Origin: Nitrospirota bacterium
GTDB lineage: Bacteria; Nitrospirota; Nitrospiria; Nitrospirales; NS-4
NCBI GenBank assembly: GCA_005877615.1
Contig: VBOD01000108.1
Location: forward strand, 18,750 to 82,749
Direction: 5' to 3'
Length of the DNA stretch: 64,000 nucleotides
Below the pieces are notes generated by a model. It searched no databases and was not told where the DNA came from. It worked only from the letters and a program-made list of their open reading frames with translations. This document shows positions 4,500-37,232 of the stretch, piece after piece (position 1 is the stretch's first letter; the number at the start of each line of letters is the position of its first letter). A program made the position numbers and the translations under genes.

Positions 4500-5696
4500 G
4501 TGGACCACGAGCAACTGGAAGAGAACCTGAGCCTGTACGCACTGGGCGCCCTCGACCCGGACTCGGTCCGCGAGATGGAACAGCACCTCGCGGCCGGATG
4601 CCCGGCGTGCAGTACCCTGCTCCGGCAATACCAGGCCGCCGTGACCATGCTCCCGTACGCGCTGCCGCACCAGACGCCCCCGCCTACACTCAAGTCCAGG
4701 ATCATGACAGCACTCTCTGGACCTGCCGCCTCCACCACCAGCGCGAGAGCGGACAGGCCCGCGTCCCCGGTGCCTATCCCGACCGCGCCGCCGGACCTGG
4801 TCTCGTCGCGCCCCTTCTCCAGGATCCCACAGGACCTGCCCGAGATGCCGGCACCGCAGCCCCTATCACGCCGCAGTGCGTCTCCCACGTGGCGGGAGCA
4901 GTTGAGGGCGACGTCCCCGGCCTTGGCCCACGCGCTTGAAGCCCTGCTGAAGCGTCTATCCCGCCGCCATGAGTTTCACAAATGGCGGGAGCAGATGAAG
5001 GTAGAGTCTCCGGCCTTCGCCGCCGCGCTTGGAGTCCTGCTGCTAGGTGTGGCAGGCTACGCCGTTCACCAGTACAACACGTTTGAAGCGGAACGAACGG
5101 CGACAGCCCGGGAGAGAGCAGAGGCGGCCCAATCGAAGCAGGAGACCGCCGATCTCAAACGCCAGTTGGCGGATAAGGAAGCCGCACTCACCAAAGCGAC
5201 GGATGAGCTGAAACGCACCGTCGAAACTCTGGGGACCACGCGCGAGCAACTCGCCCGGCACCAGGAACAGATCGACACGCTCCGGGCGCAACTCAAAACG
5301 GGGCGCGGCCGCAAGGGCGCCGAGGTTCTGCTGGCCGGAGGGGAGGATCTCCTGCGCATCCTGTCCTCCCCCACCGCCAAGATGGCGGATCTGCACGGGA
5401 CCGACGAGGCCAAGGACGCGTATGCCCTGGTGTTTGTGGAACCGGAGACGCGGCGCGGGTTCTTCTACGCCAACAATCTCCCGTCTCTCCCAGCCGGCAA
5501 GACCTACCAGCTCTGGGTGATCACCGACAAACCCGTCAGCGCCGGGGTGTTCTCAATCGATCGCGGGCACAAGGGCCGCCTGCTGATGCGCAACATTCCC
5601 GTCGTGCGCCGCATCAAGAAATTCGCGGTGAGCCTCGAACCGGAAGGCGGCCTCCCGCAGCCGACCGGCAGCATCTACCTGGCCGGCGCGCCGTAA
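4500..5696 (+). CDS. Anti-sigma factor (N-terminal zf-HC2, one TM helix, C-terminal RskA-like domain)
   Basis: HLAAGCPAC zinc motif and TM helix AFAAALGVLLLGVAGYAV. The C-terminal motif YQLWVITDKPVSAGVF...FAVSLEPEGG is typical of anti-sigma-K RskA. It lies directly downstream of the ECF sigma gene. Confidence 0.8.
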   Translation: MDHEQLEENLSLYALGALDPDSVREMEQHLAAGCPACSTLLRQYQAAVTMLPYALPHQTPPPTLKSRIMTALSGPAASTTSARADRPASPVPIPTAPPDLVSSRPFSRIPQDLPEMPAPQPLSRRSASPTWREQLRATSPALAHALEALLKRLSRRHEFHKWREQMKVESPAFAAALGVLLLGVAGYAVHQYNTFEAERTATARERAEAAQSKQETADLKRQLADKEAALTKATDELKRTVETLGTTREQLARHQEQIDTLRAQLKTGRGRKGAEVLLAGGEDLLRILSSPTAKMADLHGTDEAKDAYALVFVEPETRRGFFYANNLPSLPAGKTYQLWVITDKPVSAGVFSIDRGHKGRLLMRNIPVVRRIKKFAVSLEPEGGLPQPTGSIYLAGAP

Positions 5697-5712: not shown

Positions 5713-8700
5713 TTACAGAACGACCGGCACCGCCTGCCCCAGACGGAGGAAGATGACTTTGAACCCGGCGGGACAGTGACCCAACGCGTGGCGGACCGCC
5801 TCGGTGTAGATCCGGGCTTGCTCCCGGTAGGCCTCGGCCCGTTCCGCCACGTCAACCTCGGTAACGCGGTCAGTCTTGTAATCCGCCAGCCACACCGTGC
5901 CGTCCCTCTTATAAATGAGGTCGATGCGCCCTTCCATTAGAGCGGGAGAGGGCCCCGCTGACGCCCCTCCCGCACCCACTAGAGTGAGAGGGGGCCCCGG
6001 CCACGGCATGAGGAAGGGGACTTCGCGGCCGAGAATCGTGGCCTCTTTCAATTCGCCGTAGGCGTCGGAGCGCGCAAAGGCCTGCAGCACCTCACGGGCC
6101 TCTGCGAGAATCTCGTCACGATTCCCTTTGAACTCGTCCGGGAGCCAGCGTGCGGCGCGGCGATCTAATTGTTCAAGCAACACTTCAACCGTATCGCGAT
6201 AACTCCAGTCCTCTAGCGCTCTATGGACAAGGCCGCCGATGGCCGAAGCCAGCGTCGGGGAAGTTGTTGAAGTCGGCCCTTGGGGAGCGCCTTCGAGTGG
6301 GTGCGGGAGGGATGATGGTGTCAGGTAGAGGGATCGCTGGCGGCACTGCGACCACCGATCCTCACGGGCGCGCCAGCGGGCCTCAAACCCCGTGAGCTCG
6401 CGACGCGGCGCGGCGTCCTTCTTCTTCCGTCCTCCCCCGGCTCGCTTGCCGACGCCGGCGGGAATGACTGTCTTCGAGATGAGGTCGTCTGCAAGAGTAG
6501 GAGGGGGCCCCGCAGACACCCCTCCCACACCCACCTCCTCCTTGAGCAAGGCCAGGAAATTGCCCGGACTCTGCCGTCGCGTCAGCGCGCCCGAGAGCAC
6601 GAGCCGCTCCTTCGCGCGTGTCATCCCCACGTAGAGCAAGCGCCGCCGCTCGGCCTCGAGACGCGCCTCCAGCTTCTCCGCCACGTACGCCCCGCCCAGC
6701 GTGCAGCGCTCGCCCAGCCGCAGGCCCAAGACTCCCGTGGACCAATCCTGCTGGACTTGGATCGGCTCGTAGGGAGGCTTGGTGCCGGCATGCAACCCGA
6801 CCAGAATGACGATCGGGAACTCCAGCCCTTTGGCCTTGTGGACGCTCATGATCCGCACCGCCTCGCGGGATGTCTCCTCCGCCAGTCCGCTCTCGGACTC
6901 GTCCGGAGGGTCGGCGAGACGCGCTTTCAGCAGCTCCACGAAGCCGGCAAGCGTCATGCCGGGCTGATCCACGAGACCGTCGGCGAGCGCCCGCACCTTC
7001 CAGAGGTTCGCGACCGCCTGCTCGCCGTGCAAGGACGCCGCCGCCAGCTCCAGCAGGGGTAGCCGCTCGAAGATCAAGTCCAGCGCGTCCGGCAGCGGGC
7101 GCAGCGGGCAGTCCCGCTGCAGGGACGCGAGCGCCGCGTACAGCCGGCGTAGGTGACCGGCCTTGGGATGCGAGTCCAGACCGGACGGCCCCGTGCCGCG
7201 ATAATCCAGCGGCCCCAGCGCGACGAGGTCCATGATCTCCCGATCGGTCAGCGCGCCCACGGCCGAACGCAGCAGTCCCAACAGCGCGACCTGATCATGC
7301 GGATTCTGAACGCAGCACACGAGGTTGACGAGGTCAATCACCTCCTGCCGCTGGTAGAAATGTCGCTCCCCCTCCGCCACGTACGGCAGGCCGTGCCGGC
7401 GCAAGGCGCCCAGATACTCCCAGCTTTGCGTGAACGTCCGAAACAGCAGCGCCACATCCCCCGGCTCGACCGGACGGCGCCGTCCGTCCCGCTCGATCAG
7501 CACGTCCTGCCCGATGACCTCATGCTTCAGCCACCGCGCGACGGCTTCCGCTTCGGCCTCGACGCCTTCCTCGGCGCTGAGCGAAGCCCGCTCCTCATCG
7601 CGCGACGAGGATGCCACCAGCCGAAGCTCGACGCCCTGTGTCTGGGCGCCGGTCTTGCGGTCGGGGTCCGGCTCCAGGGGATCGTAGCGCGGCTGGAGGC
7701 CCGGGCGCTCGCGGATCAATCGCTCGAAGACCTGGTTGACGGCCATGAGGATCGTGCCATGACTGCGGAAATTCCGGGTGAGGGTGAGCGGCAGGCCGTC
7801 CTGGTCCTCCACCATCTGGCGGACGCGCTGGAACGCCTCGATATCAGCGCGACGGAACGCGAAGATCGACTGCTTGGGATCGCCGACGATGAACAGCTTG
7901 CCGGGATGCAGGCGTACGTTTGGCCAGGCCTCGGCCAGTCTGTCCTCATGCTCGGCCAGGAAGAGGAGGATCTCGTACTGAACCGGATCGGTATCCTGAA
8001 ACTCATCCACGAGGATGGCCTTGAACAGGCGCTTCAGCCGCGCCCGGACCTGCGGGTGGGTCTTCAGCAGGTCGCGGGCGCGGGCCAGGAGGCCGTCGAA
8101 CCGGACGTAGCCCGCATCGAGAAACCGTTGCCGGCACTGCGCGGCGAACGGCTCCAGCAGCCCGAGCAGGTCGCGGAAGAAGGCGTGATCGCTCGCCAGC
8201 ACCGCCTTGGCGGTCCTGACCAGATTGGCGGCGTCCTCAAACTCTTCCTCGCTCCAGCCGGCCGGAGGCTTCGCGCCTCCGTCCTTCTGCTCCAACAGCG
8301 TCCGCAGCTCCGCATCCAGTTCCGTAATGCCCGCAGGGCCGCCGCTGAGCACGCGGCCGAACAGACGGTCTGCGGCAGCCAGCAGCGCTTCGATTTGACG
8401 CGGCTTCTTCCCTCCCTCGCGGGAGGCCGACAAGAGCTCCCCTGCCCGCTGCTGCTTGCGTTCAAGCCAGGACCGGAGCGTCGGCGCGAGCCCGCCGCCG
8501 ACCTGGTCTTTGAGCGAATCGAGCGGGATGAGGTCATTGACCAGGGCCTTGGCGAACAACTCCAGCCCGGCCAGGTCCATGCCGCGCAGCACCCGTTTCC
8601 ACCGCTCCTGCCGGGGACAGGTGCCGCCGAGCTCGCCGTCCAGCCACTCACGCCACTCGCGCGTGAAGAAGTCGTCGAAGACGAACTCCTCATCAGGCGT

Positions 8701-9159
8701 GAACCGGGGATCCACGCCCGCTTCCAGGGGATAGAGGCGCAGGAGGTGCGCGGCGAAACTATGAATGGTCCCGATCTGGCTGTTCTCGAGCTCGCCCAGC
8801 GCCGCCTCGACCCGGCCCCGCAGCTCGTCGGTGGAGAGGCGATAGCGCGTGCGCAGGTCGGCGGCGGACAGGCGGTAGCGATCCCACAGCTCGCGGGCCG
8901 CCGGGGAGTCGTCCGGCGCCAGGACGCACTCCAGGCATTCCCGCAGGCGGATCTTGATCTCGTTGGCGGCCTTGTTCATGAACGTGAGCGCGACGACCTG
9001 CGACAGCGGCACCGCCTCGGGCGATTTGACGAGCAGGTGCACCAGGCGCGTGATCAGCAAGGTCGTCTTGCCGGTGCCCGCGCTGGCCGTCACCACCACG
9101 TTCCGATCGAAGGTCGTGGCGGCAAGAACCCGCGCCTGCTCGTCCCGTATCGCGGTCAC
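5713..9159 (-). CDS. addA: ATP-dependent helicase/nuclease subunit A (UvrD/Rep helicase + C-terminal PD-(D/E)XK nuclease)
   Basis: Walker A ASAGTGKTTLL. Helicase motifs ILVDEFQDTDPVQ, FIVGDPKQSIFAFRRAD and SVHKAKGLEFP...LLYVGMTRAKERL. Nuclease motif GRIDLIY...LADYKTD. Confidence 0.85.
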   Translation of the reverse strand: MTAIRDEQARVLAATTFDRNVVVTASAGTGKTTLLITRLVHLLVKSPEAVPLSQVVALTFMNKAANEIKIRLRECLECVLAPDDSPAARELWDRYRLSAADLRTRYRLSTDELRGRVEAALGELENSQIGTIHSFAAHLLRLYPLEAGVDPRFTPDEEFVFDDFFTREWREWLDGELGGTCPRQERWKRVLRGMDLAGLELFAKALVNDLIPLDSLKDQVGGGLAPTLRSWLERKQQRAGELLSASREGGKKPRQIEALLAAADRLFGRVLSGGPAGITELDAELRTLLEQKDGGAKPPAGWSEEEFEDAANLVRTAKAVLASDHAFFRDLLGLLEPFAAQCRQRFLDAGYVRFDGLLARARDLLKTHPQVRARLKRLFKAILVDEFQDTDPVQYEILLFLAEHEDRLAEAWPNVRLHPGKLFIVGDPKQSIFAFRRADIEAFQRVRQMVEDQDGLPLTLTRNFRSHGTILMAVNQVFERLIRERPGLQPRYDPLEPDPDRKTGAQTQGVELRLVASSSRDEERASLSAEEGVEAEAEAVARWLKHEVIGQDVLIERDGRRRPVEPGDVALLFRTFTQSWEYLGALRRHGLPYVAEGERHFYQRQEVIDLVNLVCCVQNPHDQVALLGLLRSAVGALTDREIMDLVALGPLDYRGTGPSGLDSHPKAGHLRRLYAALASLQRDCPLRPLPDALDLIFERLPLLELAAASLHGEQAVANLWKVRALADGLVDQPGMTLAGFVELLKARLADPPDESESGLAEETSREAVRIMSVHKAKGLEFPIVILVGLHAGTKPPYEPIQVQQDWSTGVLGLRLGERCTLGGAYVAEKLEARLEAERRRLLYVGMTRAKERLVLSGALTRRQSPGNFLALLKEEVGVGGVSAGPPPTLADDLISKTVIPAGVGKRAGGGRKKKDAAPRRELTGFEARWRAREDRWSQCRQRSLYLTPSSLPHPLEGAPQGPTSTTSPTLASAIGGLVHRALEDWSYRDTVEVLLEQLDRRAARWLPDEFKGNRDEILAEAREVLQAFARSDAYGELKEATILGREVPFLMPWPGPPLTLVGAGGASAGPSPALMEGRIDLIYKRDGTVWLADYKTDRVTEVDVAERAEAYREQARIYTEAVRHALGHCPAGFKVIFLRLGQAVPVVL
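5939..5997 (-). repeat. In-frame GC-rich palindromic repeat element, 1.5 units, inside the addA nuclease domain
   Basis: Core at 5944-5979; on the minus strand it reads GTGGGTGCGGGAGGGGCGTCAGCGGGGCCCTCTCCC. An extra half unit GAGAGGGGGCCCC lies at 5985-5997. Translated as PGPPLTLVGAGGASAGPSPAL. Confidence 0.8.
6494..6534 (-). repeat. In-frame GC-rich palindromic repeat element inside addA
   Basis: Core at 6499-6534; on the minus strand it reads GTGGGTGTGGGAGGGGTGTCTGCGGGGCCCCCTCCT. Translated as VGVGGVSAGPPP. Confidence 0.8.
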
Positions 9160-9163
9160 GGCG

Positions 9164-12100
9164 TCACCTCCCTCCGCCTGCTCGTTGCTGCCGGAGGTCC
9201 TCCAAGATTCGTTTCGCTACGTTGTCCCGCTGCCGCCACTTGGTCGGATGATGGGTCCGGCGGCAGGCCGGGGAAAACTCACAATAGTCGCAGTACTCGC
9301 CGGGCAGGATAAAGAAGCGCCCGTGCTGCACCCCCTCGAGGATCACGCGCACGGTCCCCTCCCCGCAGACCGCCGCGAGCCTCGTCCGCACCACCGGCCC
9401 GTTCGGCCAGTACGGGGCAAGGAAATAGAAGGCCGCCTCGTCCGGCACGGCCGGCTCCTCCTTTAAGACGCCGGTGGCGGCCAGCAAGTACAGCGGCGGC
9501 TGCAGGCGCTTCCCTCTGAGGGCCGCCGTCGCCAGATCGCGGTCTTCCAGTTTGGGCCCGCCCGACTCCGTGTACTTGTAGTCCACGATGCGGACATGGG
9601 CCTGCCCGTTCTCCCGACGCACATCCACCCGATCGAGGCGGCCGCGGATCGGCACGTGGCGCTGGGTGTCCGGCAACGTCGCGCCGAACGAGCCGGTCAC
9701 GGCCACCTCGAACAAGAGCGGACGGTAGCCGGACGCCCGCAGCTCCTGGAGGTCGTTCTCGATGAACGTCCGGACGAGGCGAGTGAGGTCTTCCTTGACC
9801 AGAGACCAGAGCAAGGGATAGCCGACGGGTTCGGTGGCTTCGAAATGGGTGAAGGCTTCGTCGGCAGCCGCACCCAGCCAGGCGTCGATGTCGGAGGAGG
9901 TCACCTGATCCGGAGCGACCTTGCGTTCAGTCAGCCGCTGGTAGAACAGTCGGAGGATGGCGTGGCACAGGGTGCCGCGGGCCCGCGCGTCCGGCACGAG
10001 GACGGAATCGGGCGTCTCCAGCGGCTCGAGCCGCAGGACTTTTTCGGCAAAATACTTGAAGGGACACTGCGCGTAGCGTTCCAGGGCCGTGGGCGAGACT
10101 CCGTGCCGCTCCAACATCCGCCAGTGGGCGCGGGCGACTCCGACCATGCCGTCATGGGGCGTCAGCGCCGGCTTCATCGAGTCAAGGGAGGCGACCGCCG
10201 CCAGCCCGTGCGCGAACAGCTCGGGCGGCTGATGCAGCCGCAACACCGACGTGAGGCTGGACGACGCGCCCCCTTGCAGGATCATCAGCAGGCCCGCCTC
10301 GCGCGGCGTGAGGACGGCGTAGTCGGACGGCCGCTGGGCAAACGGCCGCTCCGTCCACCGTAACGTCGGGCGACGCGTGATCCGGAGCTCGCTCTCGCCG
10401 ACGTGCGGCTTCAGCTCCGCCAGGTAGCCGGAGGGGACCATCATGCGGCCGTCGCGGTCGGCGCGTTGATGGCTGAGGACGACCCGCTCGCGGGCCGAGC
10501 GGAGCAGGAGCGCGACGAGCAGGCGCTCTTCCTCGAACCCCTCCAGCTTGCACGGGATCTTGAAGCCGAGATCGCGCGCCAGGACAACCCGGTCGGCATC
10601 GCGCAAGAACGGGTCCTCCTGGACGGAGCGCGGGAAGACCTTCTCATTGAGCCCGAGCACGAAGAGGGCGCGGAACGGCACGCCGCGGGCGTCCATCGCA
10701 TCCAGGACCTGGACTCCGTGGCGATCGCCAGCCGCGGACGGCACGCGGGCACGCTCTAGCACGCGGATGACATGCTCCACCCAGTCCGCCAGGGTGATGG
10801 CCTCGCTCAACTGCTCCAGCGACGCGACGGACTCCAGACACGCCTTGATGGCCGTCTGCACCCGGTCTGCGTGCGTGTCCGACGCGCCCGTCTCCCAGGC
10901 CGGCAGGTGGAAGTATTCCGGCAGCAGCTGTCGAAACTCTTCGGTGTAAGCATCCCATCCCGCCGTGCCGGGCAGCGCCGAGAGGGCCCGGTGCAGCCGC
11001 GCGACCAGGTCGAACAGCAGCGCCACCTGCTCGGCGGCGATGGCCGGCCGGGGCTGCTCCGCGTCATCGTCAACAGGCACGGCAAGGCCCGTCTTCGCGG
11101 CCCGCTCCAGGCGCAGCCAATCGCCCAGGCTGCCATCTTCCGGATTGCCCCGAACGATGCCCAGACGGCGGGTCGCCCAATCCCACAGGTCCGGGCGCAG
11201 ATTTGCATCAGCCGGACAGAGTTCTGCAACTCGGAAGGCGGGGGAAGTCAAAACCTCGATCACGAAAGCCCGCGGGAAGGCTTCCACCGGGAGGCGGAGA
11301 AACCGGATGATCGTCTTGACCAGCGGTTCATGGATCAGGGGCTCGCCCACCGGACAGGCGAAGGGAATCCGGTTGTCATCAAAGATGCGGCGGAGAGTCG
11401 GCATATAGGGGTCGAGCGTCCGCGCCACGACGCCGATCTCCAGCGGATCGCAGCGGGAGTCCTCGATCAGGCGGAGAATCTCCTTGGCCGCCGCCGCCAC
11501 CTCGTCCTCGACGCCGACGACGCTGACGATGCGGCAGGCCCCGCGAACAGCCGGTGCCATTTCATCAGCCAGCGATGACGTAGTGGGTGTGGGAGGGGCG
11601 CTTCGGGTGGGGCCCCCTCCCACTCTAATGGCCAACCCCTGGATGTACGTCTCAAAGAACCGCTGCGCGAACCGGTAGTCCGCGGATTCCGGTCGCACGG
11701 GGAAAAAGAGCGTGGTGGGGTACGCGCCCGCGACGGCCTTGAAGAAATCCAGTTGGCCTTGGGTCAAGTCGTAAAAGCCGTAGTAGCAGATGCGGGCCAT
11801 GCGGTTCAGGAACGCGGAGTCCGCCACGCGCTCCATGGCCAGGGCGGCCAGATCGTCCGGATCGGCGAGCCGCAGCGCCCGGTCCACTTCGAGAACGGCC
11901 GCGTACAGGCGAACCAGCGCGGCCAGGCGCGCCGGGTCGTCGGTCCTGAGCCGCCCCTCGTCCAGCGCCTGTAACACGGCGGACGGATCCACCCGCGCTT
12001 CCTTCAGGTCCTGGACCGTCGCCCAGAGACCGGTCCAGAGCCCCTGCATCCCCCGCCGGTCGCGGAATGCCTCCGCGCCGGGCACGCCGCGGTCCACGAG

Positions 12101-12391
12101 ATAGCGCAGCAGCTCTTCGCGGAAGGATCCGTTCACCAGGGCCGGCAGGATTTCTCCGCCCGCCTCCCGGAGCACGGTCATGGCCAGTTGATGGAACGTC
12201 AGCACGTGGCACTCAAGGAGCGCGCGCCCCTGCTCCACGGACAGGAGCCATTTCACGCGCCGCGCGAGCTGATGCGACGGGACCACGATGGCGAGCGGGC
12301 GGAGCGGATCGTCCTGTTTCAGCGAGTGGGATTCAGCGACGAGGGCGTTTTCGAGATCGGGATGGAACGGACCGGTGACGATCGAGAGCAT
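9164..12391 (-). CDS. addB: Helicase/nuclease subunit B (AddB-type, PD-(D/E)XK nuclease with Fe-S cluster cysteines)
   Basis: Lies 4 nt downstream of addA. C-terminal motif GRLDRVDV...IVDYKY and Cys cluster QCPFKY...CDYCEFSPAC. The size (1075 aa) is typical of AddB. Confidence 0.8.
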   Translation of the reverse strand: MLSIVTGPFHPDLENALVAESHSLKQDDPLRPLAIVVPSHQLARRVKWLLSVEQGRALLECHVLTFHQLAMTVLREAGGEILPALVNGSFREELLRYLVDRGVPGAEAFRDRRGMQGLWTGLWATVQDLKEARVDPSAVLQALDEGRLRTDDPARLAALVRLYAAVLEVDRALRLADPDDLAALAMERVADSAFLNRMARICYYGFYDLTQGQLDFFKAVAGAYPTTLFFPVRPESADYRFAQRFFETYIQGLAIRVGGGPTRSAPPTPTTSSLADEMAPAVRGACRIVSVVGVEDEVAAAAKEILRLIEDSRCDPLEIGVVARTLDPYMPTLRRIFDDNRIPFACPVGEPLIHEPLVKTIIRFLRLPVEAFPRAFVIEVLTSPAFRVAELCPADANLRPDLWDWATRRLGIVRGNPEDGSLGDWLRLERAAKTGLAVPVDDDAEQPRPAIAAEQVALLFDLVARLHRALSALPGTAGWDAYTEEFRQLLPEYFHLPAWETGASDTHADRVQTAIKACLESVASLEQLSEAITLADWVEHVIRVLERARVPSAAGDRHGVQVLDAMDARGVPFRALFVLGLNEKVFPRSVQEDPFLRDADRVVLARDLGFKIPCKLEGFEEERLLVALLLRSARERVVLSHQRADRDGRMMVPSGYLAELKPHVGESELRITRRPTLRWTERPFAQRPSDYAVLTPREAGLLMILQGGASSSLTSVLRLHQPPELFAHGLAAVASLDSMKPALTPHDGMVGVARAHWRMLERHGVSPTALERYAQCPFKYFAEKVLRLEPLETPDSVLVPDARARGTLCHAILRLFYQRLTERKVAPDQVTSSDIDAWLGAAADEAFTHFEATEPVGYPLLWSLVKEDLTRLVRTFIENDLQELRASGYRPLLFEVAVTGSFGATLPDTQRHVPIRGRLDRVDVRRENGQAHVRIVDYKYTESGGPKLEDRDLATAALRGKRLQPPLYLLAATGVLKEEPAVPDEAAFYFLAPYWPNGPVVRTRLAAVCGEGTVRVILEGVQHGRFFILPGEYCDYCEFSPACRRTHHPTKWRQRDNVAKRILEDLRQQRAGGGR
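11583..11627 (+). repeat. In-frame GC-rich palindromic repeat element inside addB, opposite orientation to the other copies
   Basis: Core at 11583-11621; on the plus strand it reads GTGGGTGTGGGAGGGGCGCTTCGGGTGGGGCCCCCTCCC. The gene reads the complementary strand as VGGGPTRSAPPTPT. Confidence 0.8.
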
Positions 12392-12513
12392 GACGGAAGT
12401 AGCCTAACGGAAAACCGAGAGGGGCACAAGAACGGATGTCACCTTTTGCACGCTGCCGTGTCTCATTGACAAGGAAAACAGTCCAGCATACTCTTTCCAA
12501 ACACGGATTCACG

Positions 12514-13107
12514 ATGGACCAGGAACTCGTTCAGTATCTCGATAGCCGATTCCAATCGGTTACCAGGCAATTCCAAGAGTTGCGGGGGGAGATGAGTGAA
12601 CAGCTCCAAGGGTTGCGCGGCGGGACGACCGAGGGGTTCCAAGGGTTGCGTGATGAGACGACTGCGGGGCTCCAAGAGTTGCGTGGCGAAATGACCGCGG
12701 GGTTCCAAGAATTGCGCGGCGAGATGACCGCAGGGCTCCAAGGGTTACGCGGGGAGATGACTGAGGCGCTCCAGGGGTTGCGCGGCGAGATGACCGCGGG
12801 GTTCCAAGGGTTACGCGGGGAGATGACTGAGGAACTCCAAGAGTTGCAGGGGGAGATGACCGCGGGGCTGGAAGAGGTCAAGCGGCACTCCGGCGTGCTG
12901 GTAGAAGGCCTCCGGCACGAGCTTCAGCTCGTGGCCGAAGGCTTCGCCATGCACGTCCAAGTTCAGCACGTGCAGGAACGGGAATACCACGACCGGCAGC
13001 ATCAGGAGACCCGCGCGCTCATCCGATCACTCTATGATGAGCTCCGGCAGCAGCACGACCACCTCCGCCAGCGTGTCGAGAACCTCGAACAGAAGAGACA
13101 GAACTAG
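12514..13107 (+). CDS. Repeat protein: nine tandem 11-residue units (LRGEMTAGxQG) followed by a His/Gln-rich coiled-coil tail
   Basis: ATG at 12514 within ORF 12436..13107. TTGACA (12466-12471), 17 nt, TACTCT lie upstream. The periodic sequence is visible in both DNA and protein. Confidence 0.7.
   Translation: MDQELVQYLDSRFQSVTRQFQELRGEMSEQLQGLRGGTTEGFQGLRDETTAGLQELRGEMTAGFQELRGEMTAGLQGLRGEMTEALQGLRGEMTAGFQGLRGEMTEELQELQGEMTAGLEEVKRHSGVLVEGLRHELQLVAEGFAMHVQVQHVQEREYHDRQHQETRALIRSLYDELRQQHDHLRQRVENLEQKRQN
12580..12876 (+). repeat. Tandem 33-nt coding repeat, 9 units
   Basis: Units TTGCG(C/G)GG(C/G)GAGATGAC(C/T)GCGGGG(T/C)TCCAAG(G/A)G with few substitutions. They encode LRGEMSEQLQG, LRGGTTEGFQG, LRDETTAGLQE, LRGEMTAGFQE, LRGEMTAGLQG, LRGEMTEALQG, LRGEMTAGFQG, LRGEMTEELQE and LQGEMTAGLEE. 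Confidence 0.9.
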
Positions 13108-34632: not shown

Positions 34633-35088
34633 CTACTTCTTCGCTGTGGCCTGTTGCGCCCGCACGTGCGCGACGGCGGCCCGCAGCCCCAGCGCATAGC
34701 TGTCAGGGCCGAACCCTGAGATCTGCCCGACCGCCACGCCGGCGATGTAGGAATGCTGCCGGAACTCCTCGCGCCGATAGAGATTGGAGAGGTGCACCTC
34801 GACGGTCGGCATGCCGACCGCCGCGATCGCGTCGCGCAGGGCGATGCTCGTGTGGGTGTACGCGCCGGGATTGATCACCAGCGCTTCGTACTGGCCCGCC
34901 GCTTTCTGAACCCACGCCACCAGATCGCCCTCGTCATTGGACTGATGGATCGTGAGGCCCGCTCCCAGCTCCTTCGCCAGCGCGTGCAGGTCGCGGTTGA
35001 TCCCGTCCAGCGTGACCGCCCCGTAGATGTGGGTTTCGCGGGAGCCCAGCAGGTTGAGGTTCGGCCCATGGAGGACCAGGATCTTCAC
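34633..35088 (-). CDS. aroQ: 3-dehydroquinate dehydratase, type II
   Basis: [35 protein letters not shown] and VEVHLSN. Confidence 0.95.
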
Positions 35089-35906
35089 TTCCGGCGACGC
35101 TCCCGGATCACGGCGAGCCAGCCTTCCAGCCGGCGGATACGGGTCTTGCGCTTGGCCTGGTCCGAGGTCTCCTGTGATGCCTTCGCCGGGGCCTGACTGG
35201 CTCCCGCTCCTTCTTCCGCGAGCGCCATGATCTTCTCGTGCAACCGGCGATTGTCGGGCTCCTTGGCGGCAAGGCGGCGATAGACCTCCAAGCCTTTCTC
35301 ACGGTGCCCCTGCGAGATGTAGAGCTCGGCCAGGGTCTCGCTATCGGTGATGCCCCCGGGACCGTGACCGTACATGGCCAGCGAGAGCCCTTCTGCGGCA
35401 GCATCACTCGCGACGTGGTCCGCAACCGGGGACTTTGCCATGCGCACGGTCGGATGCATCTCTTTGGCCTTCGCGTCCGCCGCTTTGGCAGCCTCGTGCG
35501 TCTCGGCGTGCGTGGCCTTCTTGGCGTGGGCCGCCTTGGCTCCGCCGCCCTGCAATTCCTCGAGCAGATGGCCCATCTCACGGTCCTTGGGATTGGCGTG
35601 CAGGATGGTCTCGCAGGCCTTGATCGCCAACGCCGTATCCCCGAGCTCGTGATACACCTGCGCGAGCTTCCGGAAAGCGGCGAAGTTATCCGGCGCGGCC
35701 TTGATCACCTGCTCCAGCTCCACACGGGCCAGCGCAAGGTCCCCGGAGGTGCAATAGACTTCGCCCAGCATGACCCGGGCGCTGACCATCTTCGGGAACT
35801 TCTTCAGCCCCTGCTGGAGCACCTCAATGGCCTTGCCAAACTGTCCCGCGTCGACGAGTTCCTTGGCATGAGCCATGAAAGCGTGGGATGCTGATTCGCT
35901 TGCCAT
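35085..35906 (-). CDS. TPR repeat protein with His/Lys/Ala-rich linker and basic C-terminus
   Basis: Several 34-residue TPR-like units ([54 protein letters not shown]). Confidence 0.7.
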
Positions 35907-35957: not shown

Positions 35958-37232
35958 CTACGGAAGAATGAGCACCGCGTCAAGAATTCGATGCGCCAGC
36001 TCATGCTTGGACATGAGCGGCAATGCCTCACAACGGCCCGCACGGTCCAGCAAGGTCGCGCGGTTCGTGTCCGTGCCGAACCCGGCTCCGGGCTCTGAGA
36101 CGTCGTTGGCGACGATCAGGTCCAGCGCCTTGTCGAGCAGCTTGCCTCTGGCGCGCGCGACCAGATCGCCCGTCTCGGCCGCGAACCCGACCACGAGCTG
36201 CCCGGCCCGTCGCGGCGGCAGGTCCTTCAAAATGTCCTTGGTCGGCTCCAGTGCCAGCGTCCGCACGTCGCGGCCTTTCGGTACCTTGCCCTGGGCCGGG
36301 CGCGCCGGCCGGAAATCGGCGACCGCCGCCGCCATGATCAGCACATCGGTGCCTGGGAAACGGGTGACGACTTCTTTACGCATCTCCTCGGACGTGACCA
36401 CCGAGACGTACGCGACGTTGGGAACGGGCGCAAGACTGGTCGGCCCCGCGACCAGGACGACGTCAGCGCCGCGATCCCGTGCGGCTTCCGCCAGCGCCCA
36501 GCCCATCTTCCCGGACGAGCGGTTCGACAGGAACCGCACCGGATCGAGCGGTTCCTGCGTGGGCCCGGCCGTGATGAGGACCCGCCGGCCGCGAAAGTCC
36601 TTGGCGCAGAGAGCCCCGAAGATCGCCGATAGGATGGCGTCCTCCTCGGGAAAGCGCCCCTGGCCGACCCGGCCCGACGCCAACGGCCCGACCTCCGGCT
36701 CCAGCACGGTGACCCCGCGCTGACGGAGCGTCCGCACGTTGGCGCAGACCGCCGGGTGGGTCCACATGCCGCCGTCCATGGCGGGAACCACCACCACCGG
36801 GCACTCCGCCGCAAGCACCAGCGTCGTGAGGAGATCGTCGGCGAGGCCATGCGCCAGCTTGGCGACGCAGTGAGCCGAGGCCGGCGCGATCGCGATCAGA
36901 TCGGCTCCGTCCGCGAGCGCAAGGTGCGGCATGACATTCACAGCGGGAGGGGGCCCCGCGGAACGCGCCCCTCCCGCACCCACCTCTCCGCTCGACGACG
37001 GAAACAGATCGGTGCCGACGGGGTGGCCCGTGAGCGCCTCAAAGGTCAGCGGTGCGACGAAGCGCTGCGCGGTGTGGGTCATGACCACGCGCACCGTCGC
37101 TCCTTCGGTCATCAGGCGGCGCGCCAGCGACGCCGCCTTGTAGGCGGCGATGCTGCCGGTCACTCCGAGCACGATGGTCTTCCCCGCCAAGCGCGCGGCA
37201 GGCGCGAGGGGGGTGCGTTTAGTCGTCTTCAC
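35958..37232 (-). CDS. coaBC: Bifunctional phosphopantothenoylcysteine decarboxylase / phosphopantothenate--cysteine ligase
   Basis: N-terminal flavoprotein domain (IVLGVTGSIAAYKA, PAMDGGMW) and C-terminal CoaB domain (ITAGPTQEPLDPVRFLSNRSSGKMG, AAAVADFRP). Confidence 0.9.
   Translation of the reverse strand: MKTTKRTPLAPAARLAGKTIVLGVTGSIAAYKAASLARRLMTEGATVRVVMTHTAQRFVAPLTFEALTGHPVGTDLFPSSSGEVGAGGARSAGPPPAVNVMPHLALADGADLIAIAPASAHCVAKLAHGLADDLLTTLVLAAECPVVVVPAMDGGMWTHPAVCANVRTLRQRGVTVLEPEVGPLASGRVGQGRFPEEDAILSAIFGALCAKDFRGRRVLITAGPTQEPLDPVRFLSNRSSGKMGWALAEAARDRGADVVLVAGPTSLAPVPNVAYVSVVTSEEMRKEVVTRFPGTDVLIMAAAVADFRPARPAQGKVPKGRDVRTLALEPTKDILKDLPPRRAGQLVVGFAAETGDLVARARGKLLDKALDLIVANDVSEPGAGFGTDTNRATLLDRAGRCEALPLMSKHELAHRILDAVLILP
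36942..36983 (-). repeat. In-frame GC-rich palindromic repeat element inside the coaBC flavoprotein domain
   Basis: Core at 36945-36983; on the minus strand it reads GTGGGTGCGGGAGGGGCGCGTTCCGCGGGGCCCCCTCCC. Translated as VGAGGARSAGPPP. Confidence 0.8.

Follow-up and report, generated by a model that had tools for sequence, protein, structure and literature searches.

The stretch of DNA considered here, 64,000 nucleotides of contig VBOD01000108.1 from a Nitrospirota bacterium and hereafter called the window, carries on its reverse strand an intact coaBC (dfp) gene, and within the flavoprotein region of that gene lies a short GC-rich palindrome, referred to below as copy D, in the reading frame of its host (Table 1). 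The gene order is yicC-gmk-rpoZ-coaBC followed by a TPR-repeat gene, and the same order is kept in relatives. The open reading frame (ORF) can be assigned to CoaBC because all 120 of its listed homologues carry both the Flavoprotein (PF02441) and the DFP (PF04127) domains; the predicted protein matches the solved M. smegmatis CoaBC (6TGV, E = 2.6e-34), and the alignment indicates that the invariant catalytic and binding residues are retained. His103, which aligns with the histidine of 6TGV, 7CFU and 6JLS and which we take to be the catalytic histidine of the HFCD-family decarboxylase domain (His75 of E. coli Dfp, His90 of AtHAL3a), follows five residues after an insert that is predicted to be disordered.

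Table 1. Positions in the window of coaBC, its insertion and the other copies of the element
Feature	Position	Strand	Remarks
Host gene coaBC (dfp)	35958..37232	-	424 aa, intact ORF
Copy D, hairpin core	36942..36983	-	42 nt; encodes V84-A97 of CoaBC
Whole insertion relative to empty site	36933..36992	-	60 nt, 20 codons, S81-V100
Segment absent from solved CoaBC and modelled as disordered	36939-36992	-	S81-V98
His103 codon	36924..36926	-	invariant in 64 aligned CoaBC sequences
Copy A	5941..5979	-	39 nt; sense in AddA-like ORF; read as VGAGGASAGPSPA
Right-arm half copy	5983-5998	-	directly upstream of copy A
Left-arm-only remnant	6297..6312	+	GTGGGTGCGGGAGGGA, 1 mismatch; antisense in AddA-like ORF; nhmmer E 0.74, weak
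Copy B	6496..6534	-	39 nt; sense in AddA-like ORF 5713..9159 (-); read as VGVGGVSAGPPPT
Copy C	11583..11624	+	42 nt; antisense to AddB-like ORF 9164..12391 (-); read as RVGGGPTRSAPPTPT

The insertion in CoaBC and its variation among relatives

Read on the reverse strand, copy D is GTGGGTGCGGGAGGGGCGCGTTCCGCGGGGCCCCCTCCCGCT, and the peptide that it encodes, VGAGGARSAGPPPA, is preceded by LTGHPVGTDLFPSSSGE and followed by VNVMPHLALA. From 5' to 3', a GTGG tag and the dinucleotide GT lead into the 10-nt left arm, GCGGGAGGGG; an inner stem-loop, CGCG-TTC-CGCG, and a bulge of GGGC separate this from the right arm, CCCCTCCCGC, after which comes a final T. The first-pass annotation of this DNA, made from the sequence alone, had placed a repeat copy in the flavoprotein region of CoaBC between the LTGHPVGTDLF and MPHLALA segments, and the sequence and the Pfam domains agree with it on the position, the peptide and the flanks; the length of 39 nt that it gave has to be corrected, as the copy spans 42 nt, or 14 codons.

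In an alignment of 120 homologues, the interval between DLF and the M/LPHL motif is 3-5 residues in distant and in many mid-distance relatives, as against 23 in the window, and the corresponding sequence is DLFAP-DAG-LPHL or DLFESS-MPHL in homologues of 77-78% identity. The solved M. smegmatis protein has an 18-residue gap exactly at the insert, and in a DNA alignment the empty site of one relative (locus L070; GAATCATC followed at the junction by CATGCC) is shorter than the window by 60 nt, corresponding to S81-V100. The 60-nt insertion comprises the core, a 5' AGCGGAGAG and a 3' tail GTGAATGTC. A further candidate for a near-empty site, the APDAG form (L184), was too diverged to define the junctions. 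Thus, the indel suspected at first pass is borne out by the close homologues and by the gap in 6TGV, but the size proposed for it, 13 codons, is not, since the conserved 3' tail and the 42-nt form of the core bring the insertion to 18-20 codons. Conservation of the Gly/Pro segment does not extend across phyla, and is lacking even among relatives of approximately 90% identity, as judged from the alignment and the tree. The placement in a loop that the same annotation had proposed is in keeping with an AlphaFold2 model (64 sequences, predicted template modelling score 0.80), in which the predicted local distance difference test falls below 50 only at residues 1-11, 81-98 and 230-237; the modelled values fit a flexible loop. 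The predicted tryptic peptide covering the insert is SAGPPPAVNVMPHLALADGADLIAIAPASAHCVAK.

The alignment of CoaBC relatives shows an indel that is present, absent or partial, with relatives of 77-99% identity carrying a full element (39 or 42 nt), a long form, a left arm, a right arm, or an empty site. The long form reads ARVPVAPSNATGDG (for instance, in L071), the left-arm remnant EVGVGGGGV (L069) and the right-arm remnant SNAPPTKMV (L067), and all of the remnants at this site are in-frame. One protein cluster, 99% identical to the window CoaBC, has 26 member sequences. In a neighbour-joining tree constructed with the site masked, the full, half, long and empty states are intermixed within the clade. 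The insert is dispensable for CoaBC because its relatives show all of these states, intermixed on the tree; by the comparison of sequences, it is old in the clade and decays by in-frame deletions. In addition, the variable stem pair (C-G or T-A) and the loop type (39 or 42 nt) occur at the coaBC site in all four combinations, always complementary, and therefore gene conversion, templated correction of a quasi-palindrome, or selection for the hairpin is needed to account for them.

Other sequences are found in the same loop. An unrelated insertion of approximately 40 residues is present in more distant relatives (P0090 and P0092), and an RHDEHWxGG motif occurs there in other CoaBC relatives. 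Because unrelated sequences occur there too, the loop before the presumed catalytic histidine is a general indel hotspot in CoaBC. Length variation is also seen in the TPR-repeat gene just downstream of coaBC (window 35085-35906, reverse strand), which encodes 273 residues in the window and whose product ranges between 254 and 504 residues in relatives that are otherwise syntenic (L067-L071).

Hairpin structure and reading frames of the element

The element has the general form GTGGGTGYGGGAGGGG-loop-GGGGCCCCCTCCCRCT, with a core of mostly 39-43 nt and a full insertion, tail included, of approximately 54-60 nt. Core lengths are concentrated at two values, as 94 of 187 copies have a core of 39 nt and 67 a core of 42 nt (together 161/187, or 86%), and the minority cores measure 41, 43 (19 copies) or 44 nt. 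Among 73 copies, the conserved span runs from a purine at position -1 through both arms to a tail, nn-AATG-G/T, at +18 to +22, and the flanks beyond -6 and +22 carry no information. The GTGG head does not vary between copies, although the search pattern itself required it.

As DNA, copy D folds with an energy of -17.4 kcal/mol (z = -3.45) into a 10-bp basal stem and a 4-bp inner stem with a 3-nt loop, with a GGGC bulge on the 3' side and the GTGG head left unpaired. The bulge measures 4 nt here, as against 1 nt when the CGCCCTTGGC variant is folded. The basal stem, GYGGGAGGGG/CCCCTCCCRC, is paired in 99.1% of cells, and one pair, 8-37 (8-40 in the numbering of the 42-nt form), switches between C-G and T-A (C-G 42, T-A 28, T-G 3 and C-A 1). 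The inner stem of 4-5 bp exists in compensatory forms that include CGCC/GGCG, CACC/GGTG, CGCT/AGCG, CGCG/CGCG, CAGT/ACTG and CGTC/GACG. In a set of 43 distinct copies of the 42-nt form, pairing holds in 98.3% of cells, and both partners have changed in 33 cells; none of 500 shuffles reached the observed values, and slid controls paired in 73% of cells at most. The 5' arm and many stem columns were fixed by the search pattern and are thus uninformative, the covariation signal being carried by the columns that were left free. The stem positions covary, and the element is a two-tier hairpin. An excess of G-T wobbles, considered as a sign of strand-specific structure, was set aside as mostly an artefact, as only pair 8-40 and the inner stem are unbiased in this respect. 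A scan of the whole window against Rfam at the gathering threshold returned one tRNA only, and the hairpin matched no described RNA family.

None of the element's six frames contains a stop codon, and the host frame is open through every intragenic copy. Frame use departs from uniformity (chi-square p = 1.9e-7), with 20 distinct sites in the frame reading VGAGGASAGPPPA, 9 in the frame reading GGGPADAPPAPT, 6 in the frame reading EREGAP..LPHP, and 3, 2 and 0 in the remaining frames. The two favoured frames encode small uncharged residues (Gly/Ala/Pro), and frames encoding Arg, Trp and Cys are disfavoured. Such a preference is suggestive of inserts that are translated and filtered by selection.

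A second palindromic repeat family, GGGTA-CCCGTTGC-N8-10-GCAACGGG-TG, was also observed. At four loci (L071, 3273-3300; L059; L094; and L150) it is nested in the loop of the GTGG hairpin, and it stands alone in L046, L050, L102, L140 and L176; it is absent from the window. The long CoaBC variants (433-aa forms, ARVPVAPxNATGDG) are long because this second hairpin is nested in the loop.

Distribution, arrangement and the search for a mobilising enzyme

A scan for the exact pattern across 185,579 species, with one genome per species, returned 66 loci, all of them in approximately 18 metagenome-assembled genomes (MAGs) of Nitrospirales/Nitrospirota and up to 11 per MAG, and metagenomes contributed at least 112 further stretches. 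Viral contigs gave 0 matches, and there is thus no sign of a phage origin. Coding calls came from a log-likelihood model of codon use that had been trained on the long ORFs of these loci, and by this measure 55 of 74 copies from genome loci, and 80 of 99 in an independent metagenome sample, are intragenic. Host genes carry the element in both orientations (34 sense, 21 antisense), and the host proteins fall into at least 37 clusters, including CoaBC, AddA, AddB, ValRS, CarA, MurG, PurL, AnmK and MazG, as well as a secretin, MacB, an SLT transglycosylase, OpuAC and a CCG-domain protein. In CarA, MurG, MazG, the secretin, the SLT and CCG proteins and AddA, the copy lies between Pfam domains, and the intragenic copies thus occupy inter-domain linkers or loops. 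Truly intergenic copies number approximately 12-15 of the 74 derived from genomes, at 2-60 nt from gene ends. The first-pass annotation had called the element dispersed rather than a local duplication, a view that the genome loci, the metagenome stretches and the diversity of unrelated hosts uphold; within the window, the nearest other copy is 25.3 kb from copy D, and the other copies are in AddA- and AddB-like ORFs that are unrelated to CoaBC.

The window holds four full copies in 64 kb (copy D, nhmmer E = 5.8e-12). The pattern GGGAGGGG-N(4-30)-CCCCTCCC occurs twice in the window as compared with 0.00 expected from 100 shuffles, and a 35-mer of copy D has 0 chance matches. The AddA-like ORF encodes UvrD helicase and PD-(D/E)XK domains, and copy B falls between the UvrD_C and PD-(D/E)XK domains.

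Where copies neighbour each other at less than 300 nt, 19 of 22 pairs are head-to-tail, frequently in arrays with a period of 42 nt, and the 3 inverted pairs are 204-295 nt apart. For instance, head-to-tail arrays of 2-4 copies with a period of approximately 42 nt are found at L002 (1785-1956), L091 (490-630), L118 (504-643), L024, L162 and L144, and some arrays lengthen the C-terminal end of an ORF as (VGAGGASAGPPPGG)n. At L037 (1766-7536), four copies in the same orientation lie in one ORF of more than 2553 codons. Repeats of other kinds are also present in the window: a 33-nt tandem repeat of approximately 8-11 units, 64-81% identical to a reference unit, at 12539-12908 within ORF 12436..13107 (+), where it encodes 11-residue units such as ELRGEMTAGFQ; an adjacent direct duplication of 92 nt x2 (76%) at 4858-5042 within ORF 4500..5696 (+); and another of 58 nt x2 (83%) at 213-330, near the window start.

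A partner enzyme was sought in a weak search with phmmer, using approximate IS200 TnpA and E. coli YafM queries, which gave no significant match among 4184 and 5094 ORFs in approximately 1.2 Mb near copies. A single Y1_Tnp gene was identified, an IS200-like gene at L135 (576-1796, reverse strand; PF01797, E = 1.5e-11) that lies two genes downstream of an AddA orthologue carrying the hairpin. It was rejected as the mobilising partner on the grounds that it is approximately 1.9 kb from the copy, and has unrelated AT-rich repeats of its own (22-nt inverted repeats, GGGACAGATTTATTTT, at 561-582, 1283-1304 and 1357-1377) that are absent from the rest of the 184 loci and from the window.

Origin of the element and comparison with known systems

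The segment in coaBC is probably one copy of a lineage-specific palindrome of the REP type, proper to Nitrospirales, that was inserted in-frame in the gene and has been tolerated there. The insertion would have occurred in an ancestor of the clade, and translation of the insert would give the protein an additional, flexible Gly/Ala/Pro loop, 18-20 residues long, immediately ahead of the catalytic histidine, the element being a selfish or neutral passenger and not a functional part of CoaBC. Its tolerance in a flexible loop would be understandable because it is a multiple of three, is without stops and encodes Gly, Ala and Pro. As to how the element multiplies, a route through single-stranded hairpin DNA that is REP/RAYT-like (an HUH tyrosine transposase) or similar is suggested only tentatively, since no copy was found to have such a gene beside it. 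The head-to-tail arrays may be products of slippage or of repeated insertion, and gene conversion between copies, or templated correction in the quasi-palindrome, could maintain complementarity at a given site.

Several observations weigh against an inserted REP-type element. Approximately 1.2 Mb around some 190 copies yielded no RAYT or IS200-like gene with the element at its flanks, and the flanks of the copies revealed no target-site duplication, nor a sharp target motif beyond the purine at -1 and a G at -6. The head-to-tail arrangement, as it appears in these sequences, differs from the inverted doublets (REPINs, BIMEs) expected of RAYT substrates. A presence/absence pair between near-identical genomes was not found, so that nothing here speaks for recent mobility. 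That the insert is translated is argued from the statistics of frame use, and selection for the hairpin would also explain the four complementary combinations at the CoaBC site.

This last point belongs to an explanation in which selection keeps the hairpin as a nucleic acid acting in cis, in mRNA stability, processing or translation pausing or as a DNA site bound by a host protein (for instance, a recombination or topology factor), with the peptide as a by-product. The strong covariation of paired positions and the complementarity of every stem/loop combination in coaBC would be expected of such a function, as would the ratio of T-G to C-A, 7 to 1, at the sole pair left free on both sides by the search pattern; three copies are found in addAB, and an enrichment in repair genes is on record for intragenic REPs as well (PMC3733652). 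However, covariation between copies is equally expected from the amplification of sub-families, gene conversion and quasi-palindrome correction, and the many stem columns that the search pattern fixed give no information. The presence of the element in both orientations, in at least 37 functionally unrelated clusters of hosts, and the loss of one arm, of the other arm or of everything in close CoaBC relatives, are also difficult to reconcile with a function in cis, which is considered unlikely.

More improbable still is a spread without any transposase, by ectopic gene conversion or template switching between loci and by local expansion through replication slippage. Such a process would be in agreement with the arrays of period 42, the mixture of stem/loop types at one orthologous site, the nesting of the second hairpin family in the loop, and the failure to detect a transposase beside any copy in the searched ORFs or a target-site duplication. 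The conserved single-stranded GTGG head and AATGG tail, however, resemble sequences that an enzyme would recognise, as is the case in REPs (PMC6006769). Gene conversion, moreover, depends on homology with the recipient locus, and unrelated genes lack it.

The insert might also be missing from the mature protein, through its removal from the RNA or through ribosomal bypass of the kind known from the GC-rich 'byp' elements of yeast mitochondria and the hop in phage T4 gene 60. A stable hairpin within a coding sequence, and the minority of cores of 41, 43 or 44 nt, are compatible with such a mechanism. Unlike the gene 60 gap and the mitochondrial byps, the element has cores that are predominantly of 39 or 42 nt and no stop in any frame; in addition, the host frame stays open through all intragenic copies, the decay products in CoaBC are in-frame, and the preference for Gly/Ala/Pro over Arg/Trp/Cys frames is sensible only if the insert is translated. 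Bypass or RNA removal is accordingly given very little credence. Finally, the low complexity of the peptide could suggest an ordinary Gly/Pro linker, evolved separately in each protein, or else an artefact of assembly, but this is scarcely credible given DNA identity over at least 28 fixed bases between copies that lie in unrelated genes, in either orientation, or outside genes altogether, a chance expectation of 0, and the same coaBC insertion in many independent assemblies and samples.

A broader proposal is, at present, doubtful: a mainly intragenic REP-type family, with about three quarters of copies in genes and read in the Gly/Ala/Pro frames, whose complementarity is renewed at orthologous sites and in whose loop a second hairpin nests. 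Were it true, Nitrospirales would possess an active machinery for single-strand hairpins, other than a classical REP-flanked RAYT, that continually writes and erases short loops in CoaBC, AddAB, ValRS, CarA and MurG, and that would be a lineage-wide source of indel variation in proteins, with a possible link to AddAB-type recombination. Should a mobilising enzyme be found and not be a RAYT, hairpin repeats would be known to spread by an additional route. In practical terms, repeat-derived Gly/Ala/Pro indels of 13-20 residues should be masked in protein alignments, phylogenies and structure models of Nitrospirales; they may serve as strain markers, and they flag loops that tolerate insertion, in this case beside the CoaC active site.

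The kind of element, an intragenic REP or RPE-like palindrome, is already known and is uncommon. A literature search found no described intragenic palindrome of Nitrospirales and no description of this repeat family. Its unusual features are the high intragenic fraction, the head-to-tail layout, the lack of a RAYT found nearby, and a site beside a catalytic residue of CoaBC, an essential enzyme. Miniature inverted-repeat transposable elements are likewise small, non-autonomous and multi-copy, but the Nitrospirales element has neither terminal inverted repeats matching an insertion sequence nor a target-site duplication, and is essentially one hairpin. The REPIN-RAYT system (Bertels and Rainey 2011, PMC3116915) shares with it short GC-rich hairpins and a GTGG-like head, and the REP of P. 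fluorescens SBW25, GTGGGAGGGGGCTTGCCCCCGAT (PMC2817692), resembles its left arm. The inverted doublets, extragenic location and link to a single-copy RAYT that characterise REPIN-RAYT were not seen for the Nitrospirales element.

The Rickettsia palindromic elements (RPE), reportedly described by Ogata et al. in 2000, offer the classic parallel for palindromes in-frame in many unrelated and often essential genes, where they are translated as an additional segment. The RPE-1 type is approximately 150 bp, encodes a conserved peptide of tens of residues, and has about half of its 44 copies in ORFs (PMC10969869). Differences lie in the core of 39-43 nt, in the about three quarters of copies that lie in ORFs here, and in the hosts, which are free-living soil and groundwater Nitrospirales of another phylum and lifestyle, and no sequence relationship is apparent. 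Both groups have coding and non-coding copies, and both have an insert that is compatible with the protein fold, which in the present case is read from the sequence and the CoaBC model. The element would thus extend RPE-like selfish palindromes in essential genes beyond reduced intracellular genomes, and at a higher intragenic fraction.

The closest comparison is with REPs, for which the published rule is GTAG or GTGG placed 0-2 nt 5' of a 7-20-bp stem, with an optional bulge of 1-3 nt and a second stem of 1-10 nt (Quentin et al. 2018, PMC6006769). Intragenic REPs have been described in Opitutus terrae and other species, in hosts that include recBCD, UvrD-type helicases and tRNA synthetases, although most REPs are intergenic (Di Nocera et al. 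2013, PMC3733652). The Nitrospirales element departs from REPs in that approximately 75-80% of its copies are intragenic, where REPs are predominantly extragenic; in having neighbours that are head-to-tail and not inverted dimers; in a one-sided bulge that is 4 nt in the commonest fold, although 1 nt when the CGCCCTTGGC variant is folded; in the lack of a REP-flanked RAYT gene found near copies; in encoding inserts of 13-20 residues, as against 7-8 for single O. terrae REPs; and in belonging to Nitrospirales, which are outside the described lineages. With respect to size and copy number, the core of 39-43 nt compares with 20-40 bp, and the maximum of 11 exact copies, counted per fragmentary MAG, with often more than 100 per genome. 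The resemblance, on the other hand, extends to a GTGG placed 2 nt 5' of a GC-rich hairpin, a fully paired 10-bp basal stem and a second short stem, to sub-families that differ by complementary stem changes, and to intergenic copies that lie within tens of nucleotides of gene 3' ends. As with REPs, copies in ORFs encode peptides, and the hosts AddA, AddB and ValRS correspond to the published recBCD, UvrD-type helicases and tRNA synthetases.

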